A stretch of 64,000 nt of DNA from a virus (Duplodnaviria > Caudoviricetes). A program made the position numbers and the translations under genes. Where the stretch lies: IMG/VR virus record IMGVR_UViG_3300042307_000844; one strand, given 5' to 3'. Shown piece by piece: positions 22,745 through 56,726 of the stretch (position 1 is the first letter of the stretch; the number at the start of each line of letters is the position of its first letter). The notes under the pieces were generated by a model. It was not told the DNA's origin, did no database searches, and worked only from the letters and a program-made list of their open reading frames with translations.

Positions 22745-22825
22745 TGGTAGATGCTGAGGGAATCGAACCCAATCTCTGAGAGGATCAAAACCTCTAGTGC
22801 TAAAAAACCGTTACACTACGCATCA
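22745..22825 (-). tRNA. tRNA-Gln(TTG), partly degenerate
   Basis: Anticodon arm AGAGG-TTTTGAT-CCTCT, TTCGATT loop, CCA end; mismatches in the acceptor and T stems. Confidence 0.7.
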
Positions 22826-22835
22826 ATTATAAAAA

Positions 22836-22933
22836 TGGTCTAGGTGACAGGATTCGAACCTGCGAGAGACAGACACTTACTGCCCCCAAGTAGTTCCAAG
22901 CTACCCCGATTACCAAGCTATCGCAACACCTAG
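22836..22933 (-). tRNA. tRNA-Pro(TGG) with 25-nt variable arm
   Basis: CTAGGTG/CACCTAG-A-CCA; GGTAG-CTTGGAA-CTACT; GCAGG-TTCGAAT-CCTGT. Confidence 0.85.
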
Positions 22934-23023: not shown

Positions 23024-23036
23024 ATATTAAAAAAAG

Positions 23037-23109
23037 AGCCGTAGGAGGAATTCGAATCCCCGACCACCGAATTACAAATTCGACGCTCTACCAACTGAGC
23101 TACTACGGC
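23037..23109 (-). tRNA. tRNA-Thr(TGT), no encoded CCA
   Basis: GCCGTAG/CTACGGC; TCGAA-TTTGTAA-TTCGG. Confidence 0.92.
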
Positions 23110-23114
23110 ATTGA

Positions 23115-23186
23115 CACTTCTGAGGGGAATCGAACCCCTATTTGGTGGATGAAAACCACCCGTCCTAACCATTAGACGACAGAAGC
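23115..23186 (-). tRNA. tRNA-Glu(TTC), ends TCA rather than CCA
   Basis: GGTGG-TTTTCAT-CCACC; TTCGATT loop. Confidence 0.92.
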
Positions 23187-23191
23187 AAAAT

Positions 23192-25821: not shown

Positions 25822-25822
25822 G

Positions 25823-25910
25823 TTGCGGGAGTGGAATTTGAATCCACAACAGGACTTTAACCTTTCTCTTGGTTATGAGCCAAGGATTTTACCAATTAAA
25901 CTACCCCGCG
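25823..25910 (-). tRNA. Initiator-type tRNA-fMet(CAT) with 20-nt variable region, no full CCA
   Basis: CGCGGGG/TCCCGCA with C1:A72 mismatch; CTTGG-CTCATAA-CCAAG; GTGGA-TTCAAAT-TCCAC. Confidence 0.85.
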
Positions 25911-29216: not shown

Positions 29217-32200
29217 GAGGGGATCAGGCGAAGTCGGCAAGGAACTCTTTCAGGGTGCTGCCGTTGACCGTGACAGTCTCACCGTCATAACAATCAACTT
29301 GTGCGTAGAACGTGAAGGCTCCCCGCTTGCGGGACATGTAAACGGTTTCGGAATCTTGCGCGTTCCAACGAAACCCCTTCTTTTCAAGGACGGTGACAAC
29401 GGCAACGAATTGTGGTAATGTGGTGGTATTCATGGTAGTAGCATCTTACCCTAGTTTTTATAGGGTGATGATCTCCGCATCCTTCAGAGTGGCGGCGAAC
29501 GCTTGCGCTTCCTCCAAGGTAGCGTAGCGGGAGAAGCCGAAGGCATCGCAAACCTTGAACTTCTTTGCGTCCTCCTTGGCGCGATAGGCATCGAAGGCTG
29601 CGGCTTCTGCGCGTTGTGCTTCCTCCGATGGAGTGCAGCGTCCGGTGAAGTCATACTCAGGTGTCAGGTATCTCATGGTAGTAGCATCTTACCCTAGTTT
29701 TTATTCTCCACAGGCTTTCAGGAAAGTGTCAATCAGTCGCAACCATGCAACATCATCTCGTCCTCATTCATCACTTCATCCTCACTCTCAACATCACGAA
29801 CAGCGAGGGCAAACGCTTGTGCGTAATCCATTCCATCCCCTAGTCCACGGTGGATGAAGTTTTCGCCGGAGAAATTCCAATGCCCGATCTCAACTCGAAC
29901 CTTGGCGAACCTTGCACAAGCCCAATGAGGTTGGACATCCTTGGAGATGACAGTGAAGGTTTCTTTGTAGCGTGGGGAATAATAGGTGGTGGTCATGGTG
30001 GTGTTGATGGTGTTGGTCACAAGGGCATCTTACCCTAGTTTTTAAACGCTAGGACGTTGAGCGTGTCGGATGCGCTCCCCCCGTTTTGATCATGCTTCGT
30101 AAGCCATCCACGTTCCCGCGTCATATGGCTCCGCATACAGCCCCAAGGACTTCAGGGCTTTCTGGACTTCAGGATGCACCTGCTCGTCGTGGTAGCAGTC
30201 GAAGAAGGGCATTCCATCCGTGTGAAGATTCCCTTCTTGGCGAAACCAGATGCCGCCTTCCTCCCCATCCCATTCGGTGGTGGATACGGCTTTGATCTTG
30301 GGGAACAACTCATTCAGCTTGGCGATTTTGTTTTTCATGGTGAGGCTATCTTAGGCTAGTTTTTAAAAGGGGGATCGAACCCCTTTCGCTTATCAGATCA
30401 GGCTGAAGACCAGCAACCAGCTTGGACTACCGTCCGGGCCGTGACCGTCAGACTCCACACGCTTACCCGTAGGAGTCTTGCAAACTCCATCCATTCCCCA
30501 CCGTTCCAAGGAGGACATCGATGGGGCTTTGAATGCGCTTGTGATACGCACCTGAAGCGGTTCGGGATGCGCTGGCGAGTGAACAAGGCAACGGCTGTCC
30601 TTGCCCTCGATGAAGGAGACGGGCAAGCCCTTGGCAAGTGTGGAACCGTCTTTGAGTAGGATGTCTTTTTGTGTTTTCATGGTAGTAGGATTCTAGGCTA
30701 GTTTTTAACCCTCGTTGTTATAGGTGGTTGCGTGAGACTTCTTTGTAAAGGCGCGGTATCCGCCACCCACCCGCACAAGGTAACGGTAGTTTGGGTGAGG
30801 ATTGTCCTTGGCGTTATTGTCAAACGTGGTGATACCGTTCTCAATGGAAAGGTCAGCATCCATGTCAATCTCATAGGATTGAATGAACACGTTCGGGAAC
30901 TCTTCGGATTTGTATCGGGTGATCATGGTGAGGCTATTTTGTGCTAGTTTTTATTCGCGTTTTCCCAGAGGGTTTTGATTTCCCATTTGTCCCATATGAT
31001 TTGATCTTCATCGGTGACATCGTTCCCCACGTAGAGAACGGTTTTCCCAAGCTTTGCGGGACGGGTTCCGGTTCCGGGTCGTCCATACAAGCCAGAGGTT
31101 TCCCCACAGTAAAGCGTATGGGTTGCGCCTTGTGCCTTTGACCAGTCACAAGGTGCGCCCCCATAGACTTCATGGGTCTTGCCATAACTCTTTTCACGGA
31201 CTCCCGTGATGGAGGTTTTACGGGCGCGGAGGATGTCTTCCAATGGGTAGTTGCTCATGGTGCAATCAGTCTAGGCTAGTTTTTATCAGGCGTATTCTGC
31301 TCCGATCAATTCGTTACCCCAGCGAACGGGGCGACGAGCGAAATTTGAGATGGCAATTGCCTCATCCCTTGTGATGGCATAGGCAAGGACTTGTCCGCTG
31401 GCGGTGAATAACATATCGTTCATGGTGCAATCAGTCTAGGCTAGTTTTTAAAACCACAGATAAAGGAAAAACAGGAGAAGGGCGAAAGGCCACAAGCCAT
31501 AGGCAAGCAAGCCGACAATGGCGAGGATAAAAATGAGTTCTTTCATGTTAGTTTTTAAATGGTTTGCCCCTCCCCGGAACCACCCGGAGAGGGGACTTTT
31601 ACCATGTTACCCCACGAAAGAGAAACCCGCTTGGGCGATTGCGCCCCGAACCATGCCTTGTTGCTTTGAAGTTGTGACGCTGTAGCGGTCAGGATTGACC
31701 CAGAAACCGCCTTCCACACGCTTGGCAAGGGGGAAGTGGTAGCCATAGCTGTAAAGGGTGTCCCCTTCGATGAACATGCTCTTCAGGCTATTCTTGCCCT
31801 TGGTTGCGCCGGATACGAATGCTTTAACGATTTGTTTGTTGGTCATGGTGGTGTGTGTTGTTGGTGTTGGTTACGAGATCAGTCTAGGCTAGTTTTTATC
31901 CAACCGTTACCGTTGTCCCAAAGGGAAGGTGCGCGGTGAATGGAAAGACCTTGGCAATGTCCACCTTGCCATCGCTGGAAAGGGTGAACTTGGAATGGCG
32001 GGTGTTTCCGACAGTGATGGAGACGAGTATCAGTTTCATGGTGAGGCTATTTTGGTTTAGTTTTTATGCGATGGAGTCGATGAATGCCTTGGCTTCCGTG
32101 GTTGTCAAGGTGTGTCCGATCTTCCGCATGTCAGGGGAATAGATGTCAAATCCATCCCCGATCATGCCCGACTTAATGATTGTATGTGTTTTGTATTTCA

Positions 32201-34834: not shown

Positions 34835-34862
34835 ATTTTGTTCCACGTGGAACATTGAAAGG

Positions 34863-34945
34863 TGCTTCGGAAGGGACTTGAACCCTTACGCCATTACTGG
34901 CAACGGATTTTAAGTCCGTAGTGTCTGCCATTCCACCACCAAAGC
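34863..34945 (-). tRNA. tRNA-Leu(TAA), ends CCT
   Basis: ACGGA-CTTAAAA-TCCGT with long variable arm. Confidence 0.92.
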
Positions 34946-47010: not shown

Positions 47011-49528
47011 GGTGGGATTATCTGCTAGTTTTTATACGCAGAGATAGACTCGCTTGCTTGATCCATCCTCATTGGAGTAGATTGTGATATATGGGAACAT
47101 GCGAACACCATCCCTAACTTCACTCTTATCAAACATCAGATCATATTCCAGATCGGATAAGTCCTTGGGAAGCATATCTTCGTATTCCCATTCCACAGTA
47201 TATAGATCATAGTCTTTCATAATATTAAAGGTTCCTGATTACCGTATATCAGGATCGGGCGGGAGCTTCCGCTATGCTTGGCTATGGAAACATATCAATC
47301 AATCACTTCTTCAGTGGAGAGAACGTTTTCCATCTTGATCGTGAAGCATTCAGGCTTTTCCTTTTCCCCCGTCAGTTTCTTGGCTTCCGATGGAGTGAGA
47401 TATGTGGCAAAGATATCTTTTGATATCTCATTACCATTGGCAAAATATCGCACAACAGGAATCGAATCAGTTGGATACATGCGAAGATAATAATTGGTAT
47501 TGCCTTCCTTTTCATATTTGATTAGGTAGGGAAAGTAGGCCCACTCCCCGAAAGGAAGGGATTGAACTTCCCCACGTTCGCCGGATTCGATCCCAGCCTT
47601 GACACTGGAAAGATTGGCGAAATCAAGACCAGAACGAATAATTGAAGTGGTGCGTTTTTCCAGAACAACATCCTTGAATGAGGCTGCTGGTTTTGGATTG
47701 CTTTTCCATGCCGCTCGCATGAATTGACCCTTTCCTTTGAAAAAGTTGGAAAGGATTTCGTTGGCAGTCAATGACTGAATGTTTGTAGTGATGTTCATGT
47801 TTGTAGTGTAGTCTAGTTTTTAATAAAAAATGTATCCCAGCCCAAGACTATCTTGTTGGAGATTTCTGAGAACGTTTTTCAATTCCTTTACACCCGTAGT
47901 ATCATAGTCCTCTCCCATGTCCTTGGCATCAAGAACCATTTCAAAGAAACATTCCCCGATTGCTCCCATGAGATCGTCCTTACTATCGCACGTAATGGCG
48001 GTTGTTGTCTTCCCATACATTCCCCGTCCACTGTAATCTTCGTAAAGGGATAGGTCGTTTCCGTAATCAATAATCATTTCTGCGATGTCTTTGTTCATGT
48101 GCGTATTATGTTTTATTTTTTAAATAATATCAATGTGTGATTTTTCGCAATCCACTGTGATCATGGCAGAGAATTGATCGACATTATGATCAATCTCCAC
48201 AATTCCATCCTTAAAGTCCTCCGCAAAAAATGTATAGAATTCCCGATTTTCAGCATTCATCAAATCGGAGATATTGTTGTGAGCATCCGCCACATCAGGA
48301 TAGATATCAACCGGAACATACATTAGAACCGGAATCGCGTGGTATTGTTTTGTCATAGTATAAGTATCGTTTAGTTTTTAATCCAGATTCGGAACCCATA
48401 GATATGCTATCAATAAAGCAACACCCCATAGAAAGTTTCCTGATATCATCAGCCAACACATTGTAATGAAAATAATTCCAGTTATCATAATTAAAATTCC
48501 TCCCCTTCTTCGGTGTAGATATCCGCATCTTCATCCAGATAATCCATGATACATTCCTCACTTGTGAGATATGCGTATTCGTTCTCCAGAGTATCGCAGA
48601 ACATCTTGGCGACTTGATCAAATGCCTTGCGAACAGTTCTCCCATCAAGCAGTTCCTTCCATACGCATTCCACGATGTCCTCGTCAAAGCATACACCCGT
48701 GAATCCGCACACACCGGGGAATTCCATGTCCTTGAAATGTTTGGGACGCGCATAGCCATTGTCGATCAGAACCCGCAGAAACCATGCCAGAGCGCGATTG
48801 CCTTCCAAGTCTTTAACGTAATAATTAGCAACTTTCACCTTCCAATTTTGGCAATAGCTACCAAAGGAATAGTCAACCAATCGCAGATTGCAAGCTTCAC
48901 AGACTGCTTTCAGGGAATCCAGCATCTCTTGGGAAGTGAATTCCAAAAGACATTCATCGTTCTCCGCATCCCTGATCTTGTTGGTGATTACCCGTGCTTG
49001 CGCTTCGGGAGATAACTCCTTGTAGGAGTAGAGTTGTGTGGTGATTGTTGTCATGGTTTGATTGTGGTTTAGTTTTTAAAAGCGAATGCTTCAGGATACG
49101 AGTTCCATGCGGGATTCTTTTTCCGTAGGATTTCCAATTCTTCCAATGTCGGCTTGTTGTCCTGCTTTGCAATCCAATCAATGGCATGGTATCGTTCAGC
49201 GATTTTCCGTTGGGATTGGTAGAACATTTGTTGTTGCGTCTGCATGTTCAAATATTAATCTAGTTTTTATTCCTCCAACCCCAAAGCTTTCAACATGTCT
49301 TTTTTTGTTTTCAGTTTATTTGCGTATGATATATCAACATCACATCTAGTAGCTGTCATATCCTCCCAAACCTGAATTCCCCTTGAACGATTCGTCTTAC
49401 CTTTGGTAATGAAAATACAATCGTGACAATGGGATACCCTATAATTGTTTTGCTCCGCAATTTCAATCACTGCTAGTATCTTTTTAGAGATATTTTTCAT
49501 ATCCAAATCTTAATCTAGTTTTTAAAAG

Positions 49529-49583
49529 TGGTCGGGCGTAATGCTATTCCCGTTCCTTCCGTCTCAGCATTTTTCCCGTCCGA
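49529..49583 (-). ncRNA. Possible tRNA remnant / CCA-ending hairpin
   Basis: CGGACG...AATGCT-loop-AGCATT-ACGCCCG-A-CCA, in the same context as true tRNAs (ACCA-CTTTTAAAAACTA). Confidence 0.35.
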
Positions 49584-49973
49584 GCGGGATTAATCGGAAG
49601 CTGTTTTTGACACTCAAGCCTCTACCAGAGCATGGGAAAATTCTTTCTCCGTGATATCAGCATCCCCATACTTTTCCATCCATTCCATGGCTTCTGATTC
49701 GCTTAGGGCGATGATATCAGAAGAACCTCCCCGCCCGTTGTTTCCAACTGGACATGAATATTTGCTCATGGCATTACCAGAACCATATAGAAAGTAATTC
49801 CCCTTCTTGGTTTTGTAAAGCGATTCAGTGTAATGATTGAAATCCGTTGAATAATAATTATTGGAATAATAATCAATTTCAGTTGCGGTTTCCGTGTTAT
49901 AGACTTTTCCTTCGATTACTTTTTTCATATGTTTCTTTCTCGTTACGACCAAATCTTAATCTAGTTTTTAAAA

Positions 49974-50079
49974 GGTTGGGGCGGGAGGACTTGAACCTCC
50001 ATCGCTGACTCGTCTGGCAGACAGTGGATATCATGTCTGTTGCGACCACATGCCGACATACCATTAGTCGCACACCCCA
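49974..50079 (-). ncRNA. tRNA-like RNA with 11-nt anticodon loop and 31-nt insert
   Basis: TGGGGTG/CGCCCCA-A-CC; D-arm CGAC-TAATGGTAT-GTCG; T-arm GGAGG-TTCAAGT-CCTCC; CATGT-GGTCGCAACAG-ACATG. Confidence 0.75.
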
Positions 50080-50432
50080 AATCTATCATCCAGCAGTAAG
50101 AACCAGATCACCCCGCTTGATAAGCTTCTCACGCTCCACGGGATTGACAAGAGCAGATACAAAGCTTCTCTTGTTCTCCATACCCAAGCCGAATTCAGCG
50201 GAGTATGCCTTACGTCCAAGGTCTTTGTTCGATCCACCAGTGCCATTGCCCCTAGTCCAGAATTCCGTCGCACCTTGGGCAAGGTAGAACATGTTCCCGC
50301 CGCGATTACCTGCACCATTCCATGCCAGAGAGACGATTTCCGTCATCTGATTCAGAGAACGGGTGGAAAGCTTCTCATCGCTCTTGGTCTTGTCTTCATG
50401 TTGTCAGTGTAGTCTAGTTTTTAAAGAGCATG

Positions 50433-51066
50433 TTAGTAAGCCCATTTAGCATCCCCAAGGATTTCTGTTGAGTCTTGCCACCAGTCATCCCATTGTTCGT
50501 TTGTAGCGACATTCCAATCAGGTATGCGCTCCACTGCACCTTTCGGAGTAAGACTGATTGGCAACCATTTCAAACGGTTGTTTGGATAGATTGCAATTTG
50601 TCCATTTGACAACTTCACAACATTCCCCTCCTTGTGTTCTTCAAGAAGTTCCACATCGCCAATGTCAATCATCCCAGCAGCTTGTCCTTCTGGAAGGAAA
50701 TCAATGGTGAACCAGTAATGTCCAGTCATGGGGGCGCAACCTTTCCCCATATTCACCAACATAGGGACATCTGCAAGCTGACTTTTCTGCCAAACCTCGA
50801 TACTACCCGTTAAACACTCCCACATTTGCACTTTATGAAGCGGAAGATTAACTTGTTCACCATTCGGCTCATAGTGATAGACACATTGAGGGGGAATCTT
50901 GTCGAAACAAGCAGCAAATCGATCTACCCAAACTTGAAAGCAGAACGGACGATTCCGCATTGCTCTGACACTGAGTAACCACGCAGGTTCAAAATCAGTC
51001 TCATTACCACCGAATGCATCGGCGCGAATATAGACTCTGGCTTTAGGTATATTAACGTTTCTCATA
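50433..51066 (-). CDS. Conserved phage hypothetical protein
   Basis: WLLSVRAMRNRPFCFQVW...FDKIP...QMWEC...YWFTIDF...YPNNR; start placed at MRNVNIPK, coupled to the upstream stop. Confidence 0.6.
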
Positions 51067-52589
51067 ATTTTATCCTTCGATGCAATGCTCATCAAATTTC
51101 GCAATCGCCTCATCCAGATTGATGGGAAGGAAAGATGGCTTGCTGCCGTTCTTCATATCCGCAATGGGATTTGCCCATTGATCCGATTCTCTTCCCAAAT
51201 ACCAGTAAGCTTTCTTGTTCCTTGCGATGACCCTACCAGAGAATAGATTACCAGTAGGAATCCCATCCGTCTCCACAACGAATCGGGTGTTCTTTTCCTT
51301 GTCAATGTCCAGAGGAATGAACATGTAGTATTGTTTGGTCATGGCGTTATTGTGTTCTAGTTTTTATCCAGCAAATCCAGCACCCATTGAAGGCGGAATT
51401 GTGCGGGGAAACGATCAGAAATATATTGAAGATTGATAAGGATTGATTCTTCCGATTCATATCCATAGGTATCCACTCCCTTTCTATTATCTAAAGGCAT
51501 CCACCCCCTCATTTGATCATACCAATTCAGATAGCGAAGTTCAGCAGCAATCTCTCCCCTGTGTGGTTTCAGGATTTCAATAGCTTTGGGGAGTGTCATG
51601 TCCTTCAAACCATAAAAATTTGAAAATACCCGTCTAAGAATTTCATAGCGATGCTCTCGCTTCCTTTGGATTCTGTTGATTGTTGTTCTCTTCATGGCTC
51701 AAGTATCGTCTAGTTTTTAACCCCTTTGGGTAATCTTACCATCCGCATCCCAAGCTTCCACTCTCCGATAGCTAAGACTTGCCTCAATAGCATCCATCGT
51801 TTGTTCCACATAATGGGAAAGCTTGCAGGTTTCCAGATAGTTCCATCTTTTGGTGAGTTCTTCATCTGTCCACTCCTCAAATTTATCTACGAAATCTTCC
51901 ATGGGTTGATTATAATTTAGTTTTTATCCAAACTTCGCGCCACATAATCCTCAATCCCATCGCTTGGATCGTCCACGCATACCAGAGAATTGTTCAGCAT
52001 TGCCTTGATCTGATTCATGTTCAGGGCTTGCATATCATCCTCTACTCCCAACCACCCTTCAACATATTCTCGAACTTGTTTGATTGTAAATGTTTTATTC
52101 GGCATGAGAACAGTGTGTGCTATTTTTTAATTCACATATCGTAATAGATAGTGTCGTTCGCATCACCAAACAACCTCTCCATCAAACGGTTCTTCCATAG
52201 CCTGTCCGTTTCGTTTCCAACCTCTCTCACTACGTTTCCAATGATATCCCTAAACGATGGATACTCTTCGTAATGCCCGATATAATCAGAATAACAACCA
52301 TCCCAATAGATATCAATTTTCAATCCTTTTTTAAGTTGTCTTTCCTTAACCGTGAAACCAAGTTCTTCCAATTGTTCTTTTGTCAATGCTTTCATATTAT
52401 TTTGATTGAGGAATCATCATATTGTGAGATACTTCTTTAATATCGCCATCGTGTTCAACATAAAGAGTTGAAGCATCGGGATTACAATCCTGCATAAATA
52501 GACATGCTTCGGTTATTTCAACAACTCCTAGATTCCTATGTGTTGCTTTACCCAACTTAAAATCATTATCAAATTTAATTTCTTTCATA

Positions 52590-56525: not shown

Positions 56526-56726
56526 GGTGGAGCAAGTGGGTCTTACCCCCACTCTAGGCTGATCATGCCCACAATCTACTCAACATATCTGGCTTTCACC
56601 ACGACTGGCTACTCGATGCGTCAGGAGGAAGGGTTTCGTCTTTCCTTCTTTCTTGCCTGATAAACTAATCCAGAGATACTTCAAGCGACTCTGCTGTGTG
56701 TCTAAGATTTTCCACACCGTTGCTCC
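56526..56726 (-). ncRNA. 201-nt tRNA-like structured RNA
   Basis: GGAGCAA/TTGCTCC-A-CC acceptor, adjacent 5-bp/7-nt arm GTGGG-GGTAAGA-CCCAC, several internal hairpins, followed by a T tract. Confidence 0.7.

Follow-up and report, generated by a model that had tools for sequence, protein, structure and literature searches.

What is an RNA that is framed like a tRNA around a rebuilt interior, and what could it do for a phage? The question is raised by a 106-nt element (49974..50079, minus strand; p1 corresponds to position 50079) in a 64,000-nt stretch of DNA, hereafter the window, which is part of an uncultured T4-like phage from lake water. The gene content of this phage includes a portal, a ribonucleotide reductase and a tRNA nucleotidyltransferase, many lake metagenomes contain the phage, and all 12 tRNAs that ARAGORN calls in the window (12/12) lie on the minus strand. 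An earlier note, made from the sequence alone, had described the element as a tRNA-like RNA with intact acceptor, D and T arms, an 11-nt anticodon loop and a 31-nt insert, and had considered a non-decoding mimic, a frameshift-suppressor-like tRNA and a switchable RNA.

Results

The element is located between an early gene and a promoter box

Upstream of the element lies an early gene of 86 aa without a known family (50086..50346, minus strand), the TGA stop of which is 6 nt ahead of the element start (50079); its homologues with 81-98% identity anchor the same slot in related phages. At its 3′ end, the element runs into a T-run that forms the beginning of the following copy of a repeated promoter box, AAAAACTAGATTAAGATTTGG (49949..49969, minus strand; motif AAAACTA[AG]). 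Copies of the box TTAAAAACTA[AG] number 85 on the minus strand and one on the plus strand, and an ATG follows 10-20 nt past the box in 75 cases, which implies leaderless or near-leaderless early messages. The minus-strand copies between 24 and 63 kb usually precede an ATAAT- or AAGAT-like hexamer, and the gene after the element is an exception with its 20-nt leader.

Neither neighboring gene that was considered as a partner is linked to the element. The downstream gene (104 aa; 49614..49928, minus strand) was rejected because no tRNA-like element lies upstream of its homologues in other phages, and in the related phage L128 the gene downstream of the same element differs from that of the window. 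Linkage with a conserved 226-aa gene (50433-51113, minus strand) was ruled out as well, as a tRNA is found downstream in 0 of the 40 loci scanned out of 80 related ones and BLAST detects an element copy in 0 of the 80. The 226-aa protein itself has no Pfam match, belongs to PHROG 3704, labelled "ferredoxin", and recurs with up to 88% identity in IMG/VR contigs, at least 174 of them, that otherwise have unrelated flanks; the gene is auxiliary and highly conserved, and the region around it is variable.

A tRNA frame surrounds an interior that does not decode

Upon re-reading of the sequence, all the stems listed in the earlier note were found on the minus strand from 50079 to 49974. The acceptor stem is formed by TGGGGTG (50073..50079, p1-7) and CGCCCCA (49977..49983, p97-103), with seven pairs, one of them T.G. 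In L128 and in the short forms described below, the 3′ strand reads CACCCC(T); acceptor pair 6-67 is T.G in the window and T-A in L128, and pair 1-72 is T-A in the window and T.T in L128, the short forms and phage tRNA-Gln genes. A D-arm-like hairpin, CGAC-TAATGGTAT-GTCG (50054..50070, p10-26), follows the acceptor strand and is invariant in the three distinct copies, while the T arm GGAGG-TTCAAGT-CCTCC (49984..50000, p80-96) is present in all short and long forms, and its loop variants (TTCAAGT, TTCGAAT in L128 and TTCAATC in L129) are all of the T-loop type. The tail is ACC, as had been seen before, then TTTT (49970..49976), and reads TTCTTTT in L128 and the short forms.

Between these outer parts lies a "tRNA body" of 72 nt (50001..50072). 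It includes the anticodon arm that the earlier note had proposed (CATGT, the 11-nt loop GGTCGCAACAG and ACATG; p28-48), and the sequences of the 31-nt insert after ACATG (p49-79) and of its two alternative pairings, CAGACA/TGTCTG and GTCTG/CAGAC, were likewise confirmed. Two further helices can be drawn: P2, in which TGGTCGCA (50041..50048, p32-39) forms eight pairs with the D-arm 5′ strand (p8-15), and hairpin P3, CAGACA(TG)-loop-(CA)C-TGTCTG (50018..50039), a remodelled anticodon arm whose loop has 10 nt, or 5 nt if two further pairs form. The P2 partner strand, judged from its sequence, may have arisen incidentally, when the 3′ strand of the D stem underwent a short tandem duplication. A 17-nt linker (50001..50017) takes the place of the variable loop, with one change, C to T at p64, that is common to L127 and L128.

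The element was then measured against the features of a tRNA. For the acceptor (7 bp, discriminator, CCA encoded or added) it has seven pairs, A, CC and then T, with ACC lacking in L128; for the T arm (5-bp stem, 7-nt loop TTCRANY) it has GGAGG-TTCAAGT-CCTCC, and L128 has the loop TTCGAAT. A D arm (3-4 bp, GG in the loop, two bases past the acceptor) is present in the sequence, and its predicted pair probability is 0.004 because of the competing 8-bp P2. An anticodon arm with a 5-bp stem, a 7-nt loop, U33 and purine 37 is absent, since the loop has 11 nt in CATGT/ACATG and 10 or 5 nt in P3, and no loop register fits U33-NNN-purine37.

The detectors of known RNA classes are silent. ARAGORN does not call the element at default settings, and calls it at 70-80% stringency with a forced 27-nt intron; the Rfam tRNA model (RF00005) gives no match at E<=10, and tRNA-Sec (RF01852) gives 13.5 bits against a cut-off of 47 (E=9.8), the UCA loop being absent. 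In tmRNA mode ARAGORN finds none, and 106 nt are too short for a tag. The Rfam search of 49800-50300 at E<=10 yielded, besides the weak tRNA-Sec hit, a folP-RNA chance match outside the element, and the bacterial Y RNA (YrlA), riboswitch and small ribozyme models leave the element unmatched at the same threshold. Kinship with integron-like attC sites in the window was also rejected, as the sites were read and bear no likeness to the element.

The intact acceptor, T and D-like arms and the tail near CCA could be explained by a working tRNA with an enlarged anticodon loop, such as a frameshift suppressor or recoding tRNA, and the phage does have other odd tRNAs with long extra arms. However, this explanation is close to refuted. 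The stem of the 11-nt loop is not a conserved helix, no register places U33 and purine 37, and the phage has a separate tRNA-Gln(UUG)-like gene at 22748-22825. A hidden intron was rejected by deleting every internal segment of 4-65 nt and re-running ARAGORN, whereupon 18 of 2449 variants were called with poor stems and inconsistent anticodons (Gly, Ala, Trp, Arg), and the ORF statistics show no sign of an alternative genetic code or of recoding. Because CATGT/ACATG is neither favoured nor conserved, the frameshift suppressor suggested in the earlier note has no basis. The element cannot read codons, and it is not a working or frameshifting tRNA.

Comparison of copies supports hairpin P3 and a slowly changing interior

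The CATGT/ACATG sequences claimed to close the 11-nt loop are thus present, but they do not form a favoured helix: their pair probability is 0.001, and the cloverleaf built on them has -26.8 kcal/mol versus -35.4 to -39.0 kcal/mol for folds with CAGACA/TGTCTG. The pair probabilities of P3 and P2 are 0.91 and 0.93, and the fold z-score of the element is -1.87. When the D arm is imposed, the best fold (-36.1 versus -39.0 kcal/mol unconstrained) has one long irregular central arm with the P3 hairpin at its tip, and the 17-nt linker pairs in part with the 5′ linker p27-36.

Identical elements were found in L116, L117 and L130-132, with identical copies in independent JGI, ENA and Logan assemblies, and diverged copies in L127, which is cut inside the T arm, and L128; a covariance model built from the copies gives 134-136 bits in its self-hit. 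The recurrence in these copies, and hits of such a model to phage tRNAs and other framed elements at E ~1e-5, speak against a chance arrangement. As the distinct copies are three in number (window, L127 and L128), the covariation comes from one comparison, that of L128 with the window, in which 5 of 72 interior positions differ. Four of these five changes constitute two compensatory C-G to T-A replacements in P3 (41-62 and 45-58), and the fifth lies in the linker and is common to L127; the chance that five random changes strike both sides of at least two candidate pairs is about 0.003. P3 and the CATGT/ACATG stem are mutually exclusive, and a C-to-T change of L128 that is compensated in P3 leaves only a G.U pair in the latter. 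The other pairing of the insert, GTCTG/CAGAC, was rejected, having a 1-nt loop and one pair broken in L128. The comparison therefore supports CAGACA/TGTCTG, not CATGT/ACATG, and the homolog covariation that had been suggested as a check does back P3. The P2 region shows no variation among the copies. Coordinated changes of the two arms can also arise by templated repair of an inverted repeat, without selection on the RNA.

The interior has also changed slowly. L128 differs from the window at 5 of 72 interior positions, whereas in the adjoining gene 15 of 81 third-codon positions have changed (p=0.005); for L127 the numbers are 1 of 72 and 11 of 85 (p=0.0005). This slowness fits purifying selection, and a recent transfer between lineages could look alike. 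With an interior conserved in two other lineages and slower than third-codon positions, the earlier suggestion of a non-decoding tRNA-shaped RNA, as opposed to random decay, gains support.

Because two mutually exclusive folds exist, the element is conceivable as a switch or attenuator, in which the D arm plus the anticodon-like stem would alternate with P2 plus P3 and so set the closure of the acceptor before the T-run, and hence read-through. The competing helices share the strands CGAC and ACA, the imposed D-arm fold comes near to the unconstrained optimum, and a T-run follows in all copies. On the other hand, the element is immediately followed by a promoter box that serves the next gene, so that control of read-through would be of no obvious use, one fold dominates the predicted ensemble through P2 and P3, and there are neither conserved loops like a ligand pocket nor an Rfam riboswitch match. 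We thus consider a switch improbable.

The frame resembles phage tRNA-Gln(UUG)

When covariance models were made from the three copies, real phage tRNAs came up at E ~1e-5, and with model R2 the tRNA-Gln(UUG) genes of G002 and G003 are the highest among true tRNAs (29.9 and 28.6 bits). When the frame was compared with 41 tRNAs of the window and its relatives, these two tRNA-Gln(UUG) genes were the closest, and among 42 distinct tRNAs the start TGGG[GC] is confined to the two tRNA-Gln, both of which have a CAGA/TCTG anticodon stem. Like tRNA-Gln, the element begins with TGGGG at the 5′ end, carries a TG spacer and the D loop AATGGTA, and has CAGA/TCTG as a stem; its T arm is nearly that of the G002 phage tRNA-Gln, and a weak or mismatched 1-72 pair is shared as well. 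The anticodon loop TTTTGAT corresponds to CATGATATCCACTG in the element, both flanks of the stem are longer, and 13-14 nt have been added 5′ and 17 nt 3′ of the old anticodon stem. From modest score margins and these shared motifs, the frame appears to go back to a tRNA-Gln(UUG) carried by related phages. Unlike a true tRNA-Gln(UUG) (RF00005), the element has a loop of 10-14 nt in place of the 7-nt anticodon loop, no UUG anticodon and the 17-nt linker for a variable loop, and goes uncalled by ARAGORN and the Rfam tRNA model.

The window has in addition a thirteenth tRNA, tRNA-Gln(UUG)-like, at 22748-22825 (minus strand), which adjoins tRNA-Pro and was missed by ARAGORN; it scores 28.3 bits (Rfam cut-off 29), its T stem has 3 bp and its D loop is oversized, and G001 has an 80-nt tRNA-Gln at the same place. 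Since the acceptor stem and T arm of this gene differ from those of the element, the element represents a remodelled additional copy rather than the sole Gln gene of the phage. Two other tRNAs on the minus strand are unusual for their isotype, a tRNA-Pro(UGG) of 98 nt with a paired extra arm of ~25 nt (22836-22933) and an initiator-like tRNA-Met(CAU) of 89 nt with a C1/A72 mismatch and a long variable region (25822-25910). Among the phage tRNAs without an encoded CCA (34861-34945 and 23036-23187, minus strand), tRNA-Leu ends in ACC and T, and tRNA-Glu and tRNA-Thr have none of it.

The slot holds long, short and unrelated forms in related phages

Related phages were fetched via the 86-aa gene, the exact protein of which is listed in 127 index blocks, and the slot between this gene and the box was found to hold at least six kinds of filler. 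The long form with the ACC tail is that of the window and its identical copies in L116, L117 and L130-132 (the tail of L127 is unseen), and L128 has the long form with the tail TTCTTTT and a different downstream gene. In a third kind (L095-097, L114, L115 and L126), GGGGTG is joined directly to GGAGG-TTCAAGT-CCTCC-CACCCC plus TTCTTTT; the short form of L109 has a compensated lower stem, GGGATG/CATCCC. The remaining kinds are a T-arm-only hairpin (L129), plain G-run/C-run hairpins or C-runs in a clade of 81% identity (L100-108), and an unrelated structured element of ~90 nt (L098, L099 and L125). GGGGTG and GGAGG thus stand either side by side or, in the window, L127 and L128, with the 72-nt body between them and with no microhomology or duplication at the junctions; therefore, the body is an exact presence/absence polymorphism. 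It was rejected as a mobile element, as its junctions have no terminal inverted repeats or target duplication, and no further copies were found in the window when it was searched as a repeat or mobile element. The tree of the flanking gene mixes long- and short-form carriers, with L128 beside the short-form L115 and L109, and by this comparison the slot changes its filler independently of its neighbors, as the promoter-early stem-loop (PeSL) sites of T4-type phages would be.

IMG/VR scans returned no long form, a metagenome scan returned short forms only, and GenBank phages showed no similarity beyond a T arm and 3′ acceptor that match other tRNAs (e.g. Myrna tRNA-Ser). Four lake DNA runs from 2018-2024 gave contigs that equal the window and show neither variants nor a joint across the insert; they are possibly the source of the window and in that case not independent of it. 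A normal tRNA, which the earlier note had imagined at this place in relatives together with an unconserved insert, is found there in none of the relatives compared, and most relatives are without the insert.

The reduced forms bear on another explanation, a decaying tRNA-Gln pseudogene, whose acceptor and T arm would act as the terminator of the upstream gene and whose 72-nt interior would be filler en route to deletion. The short form, an acceptor plus T minihelix with a T-run, is indeed terminator-like (11 pairs, nine of them G-C, tail TTCTTTT) and holds exactly the outer stems, and the T-arm-only hairpin of L129 and the plain GC hairpins of L105 and L106 are reduced further. Other tRNA 3′ remnants lie ahead of promoter boxes in these phages, the detectors are silent, the tail is unconserved, and near-repeats read within the element suggest slippage-type expansions. 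The argument that perfect outer stems speak against decay is also weakened, as sister phages keep the outer stems alone as a terminator-like hairpin. However, decay would not predict two compensatory changes in P3 with a single unpaired change in the interior, or an interior slower than third-codon positions. Moreover, the long form is branched, with ACC before TTTT, and as it is no simple hairpin by a T-run and receives no terminator score, the filler would harm the supposed sole function. The position before the box fits a PeSL. The pseudogene is therefore a serious but unlikely explanation.

In the window, T-loop-like hairpins with 7-nt loops abut promoter boxes at 30363, 32226 and 32881 (minus strand), reading GGGG-TTCGATC-CCCC, AGGG-TTCAATC-CCCT and GGGG-TTCAATC-CCCC. 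These sequences suggest that T-arm-derived terminators may be general in this phage.

Other lake phages carry tRNA-framed RNAs

The covariance models also find tRNA-framed elements that are not tRNAs in other lake T4-like contigs. One of them is a framed RNA of 126 nt with a 73-nt interior (L123:674-799; models R1/R2, 27-31 bits, E 1e-4 to 6e-6), which shares with the element the GGGTG-TG start, CGAT before the T arm and a T-rich tail plus box, and whose T stem differs from that of the element by one compensated pair. On the same contig, R1/R2 detect a framed RNA of 71 nt with acceptor, D and T arms and a 15-nt linker for the anticodon arm (L123:2180-2250), and in both of these the D-like arm has the position and style seen in the element. 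A third of 94 nt lacks the D arm and combines the anticodon-like loop CTTCTAA with a long extra arm (L136:1501-1594), and the framed RNAs at L102:364-474 and L103:93-203 resemble a 201-nt element at 56526-56726 of the window. Each is followed by a T-run, and mostly then by a promoter box. The element has the same layout, namely acceptor, 2 nt, D arm, non-tRNA interior, T arm, acceptor and T-run, and the homology of the frames is detectable. It differs from these variable-interior RNAs of lake T4-like phages in being the smallest loaded member seen here, in having an interior that appears to be a remodelled tRNA-Gln arm and not foreign cargo, and in that its frame is also found empty, as a minihelix, at the same site.

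Discussion

Based on these findings, we propose, with a probability of about one half, that the element is a conserved non-coding RNA module with a phage gene of the tRNA-Gln(UUG) type as its ancestor; having lost the decoding function, it would serve as a tRNA-scaffolded 3′ end or small stable RNA. The sequence, the homology, the P3 covariation, the slowly changing interior and the polymorphic slot are observed here. For its transcription, processing and stability, and for the activity of the rebuilt arm, we infer the following course. First, the element would be transcribed from the box of the upstream gene as the 3′ end of an early message, and the tRNA frame would provide a defined, nuclease-resistant RNA end. 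This end could be made by a pause or stop at the T-run, or by an RNase P cut at p1 plus 3′ trimming, and the CCA-adding enzyme of the phage (19164-20756, minus strand) could thereafter turn the ACC end into CCA. A small stable RNA would result, with the rebuilt arm as its working part, as a natural counterpart of the engineered "tRNA scaffold". The processing capacity exists in that the phage encodes the tRNA nucleotidyltransferase, and its bona fide tRNA-Leu also ends in ACC plus T. Against the proposal stand the lack of the element in most close relatives, including the complete G001 and G003, in which BLAST and the covariance model find it absent, the ACC tail, which is unconserved (TTC in L128), and the D arm, which faces a much stronger alternative pairing.

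The slot itself resembles a known arrangement of T4-type phages, whose PeSL cassettes were reportedly described by Arbiol in 2010. PeSLs consist of a G-run/loop/C-run stem in promoter-terminator cassettes (Comeau 2014, PMC4122927). In its short form, the slot likewise places a G-run/loop/C-run hairpin and a T-run immediately ahead of a conserved early promoter, and it behaves as a gene-cassette exchange site, the tree of the flanking gene being decoupled from the slot filler. Unlike in PeSLs, the stem-loop is an exact acceptor plus T-arm minihelix with a T loop, and in the window lineage a tRNA body of 72 nt interrupts the minihelix; likeness to tRNA goes unmentioned in the PeSL text (PMC4122927).

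In the engineered tRNA scaffold, the acceptor, T and D arms are kept and the anticodon arm is replaced by a foreign hairpin (Ponchon and Dardel; PMC3753655), and the product is processed and stable in E. coli and nuclease-resistant (PMC3753655). The element similarly keeps acceptor, T and D-like arms around a rebuilt anticodon arm, but the scaffold is a laboratory construct. By analogy, T4 RNAC and RNAD may be the closest natural precedent. They are encoded together with tRNA genes and matured like tRNAs. Both are small stable RNAs without a known function (PMC9697503). Unlike these, the element resides in an early-gene slot and not in a tRNA cluster, and the likeness is one of analogy alone.

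A wider reading, which we regard as doubtful, is that the acceptor plus T minihelix is a docking frame and the 72-nt body an exchangeable cassette, such that functional RNAs would be plugged into a natural tRNA-scaffold system, matured by tRNA enzymes and swapped between phages, and that PeSL terminators would be exapted tRNA minihelices. As for the proposal of a conserved RNA module, it would mean that a phage tRNA gene has been converted to a non-decoding structured RNA, and literal tRNA acceptor/T-arm minihelices can serve as the terminator hairpins through which genes are shuffled in T4-type phages. If processed and stable, the element would be a natural version of the tRNA scaffold of biotechnology and would give access to a group of phage tRNA-shaped RNAs; if it is no more than a pseudogene in decay, the steps from a tRNA to a terminator are documented here, from full body through minihelix and T arm to plain hairpin.

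A second structured RNA of ~90 nt was observed in an equivalent gene-to-box slot (49524-49613, minus strand; L098:3259-3348, L099:3259-3348 and L125:2930-3022). It belongs to no Rfam family at the gathering threshold and has an ACCA end followed by a T-run, and in the comparison with the diverged L125, five predicted pairs are kept through two-sided changes, for example in the helix CTTCCG/CGGAAG, which becomes CCCTTG/CAAGGG.
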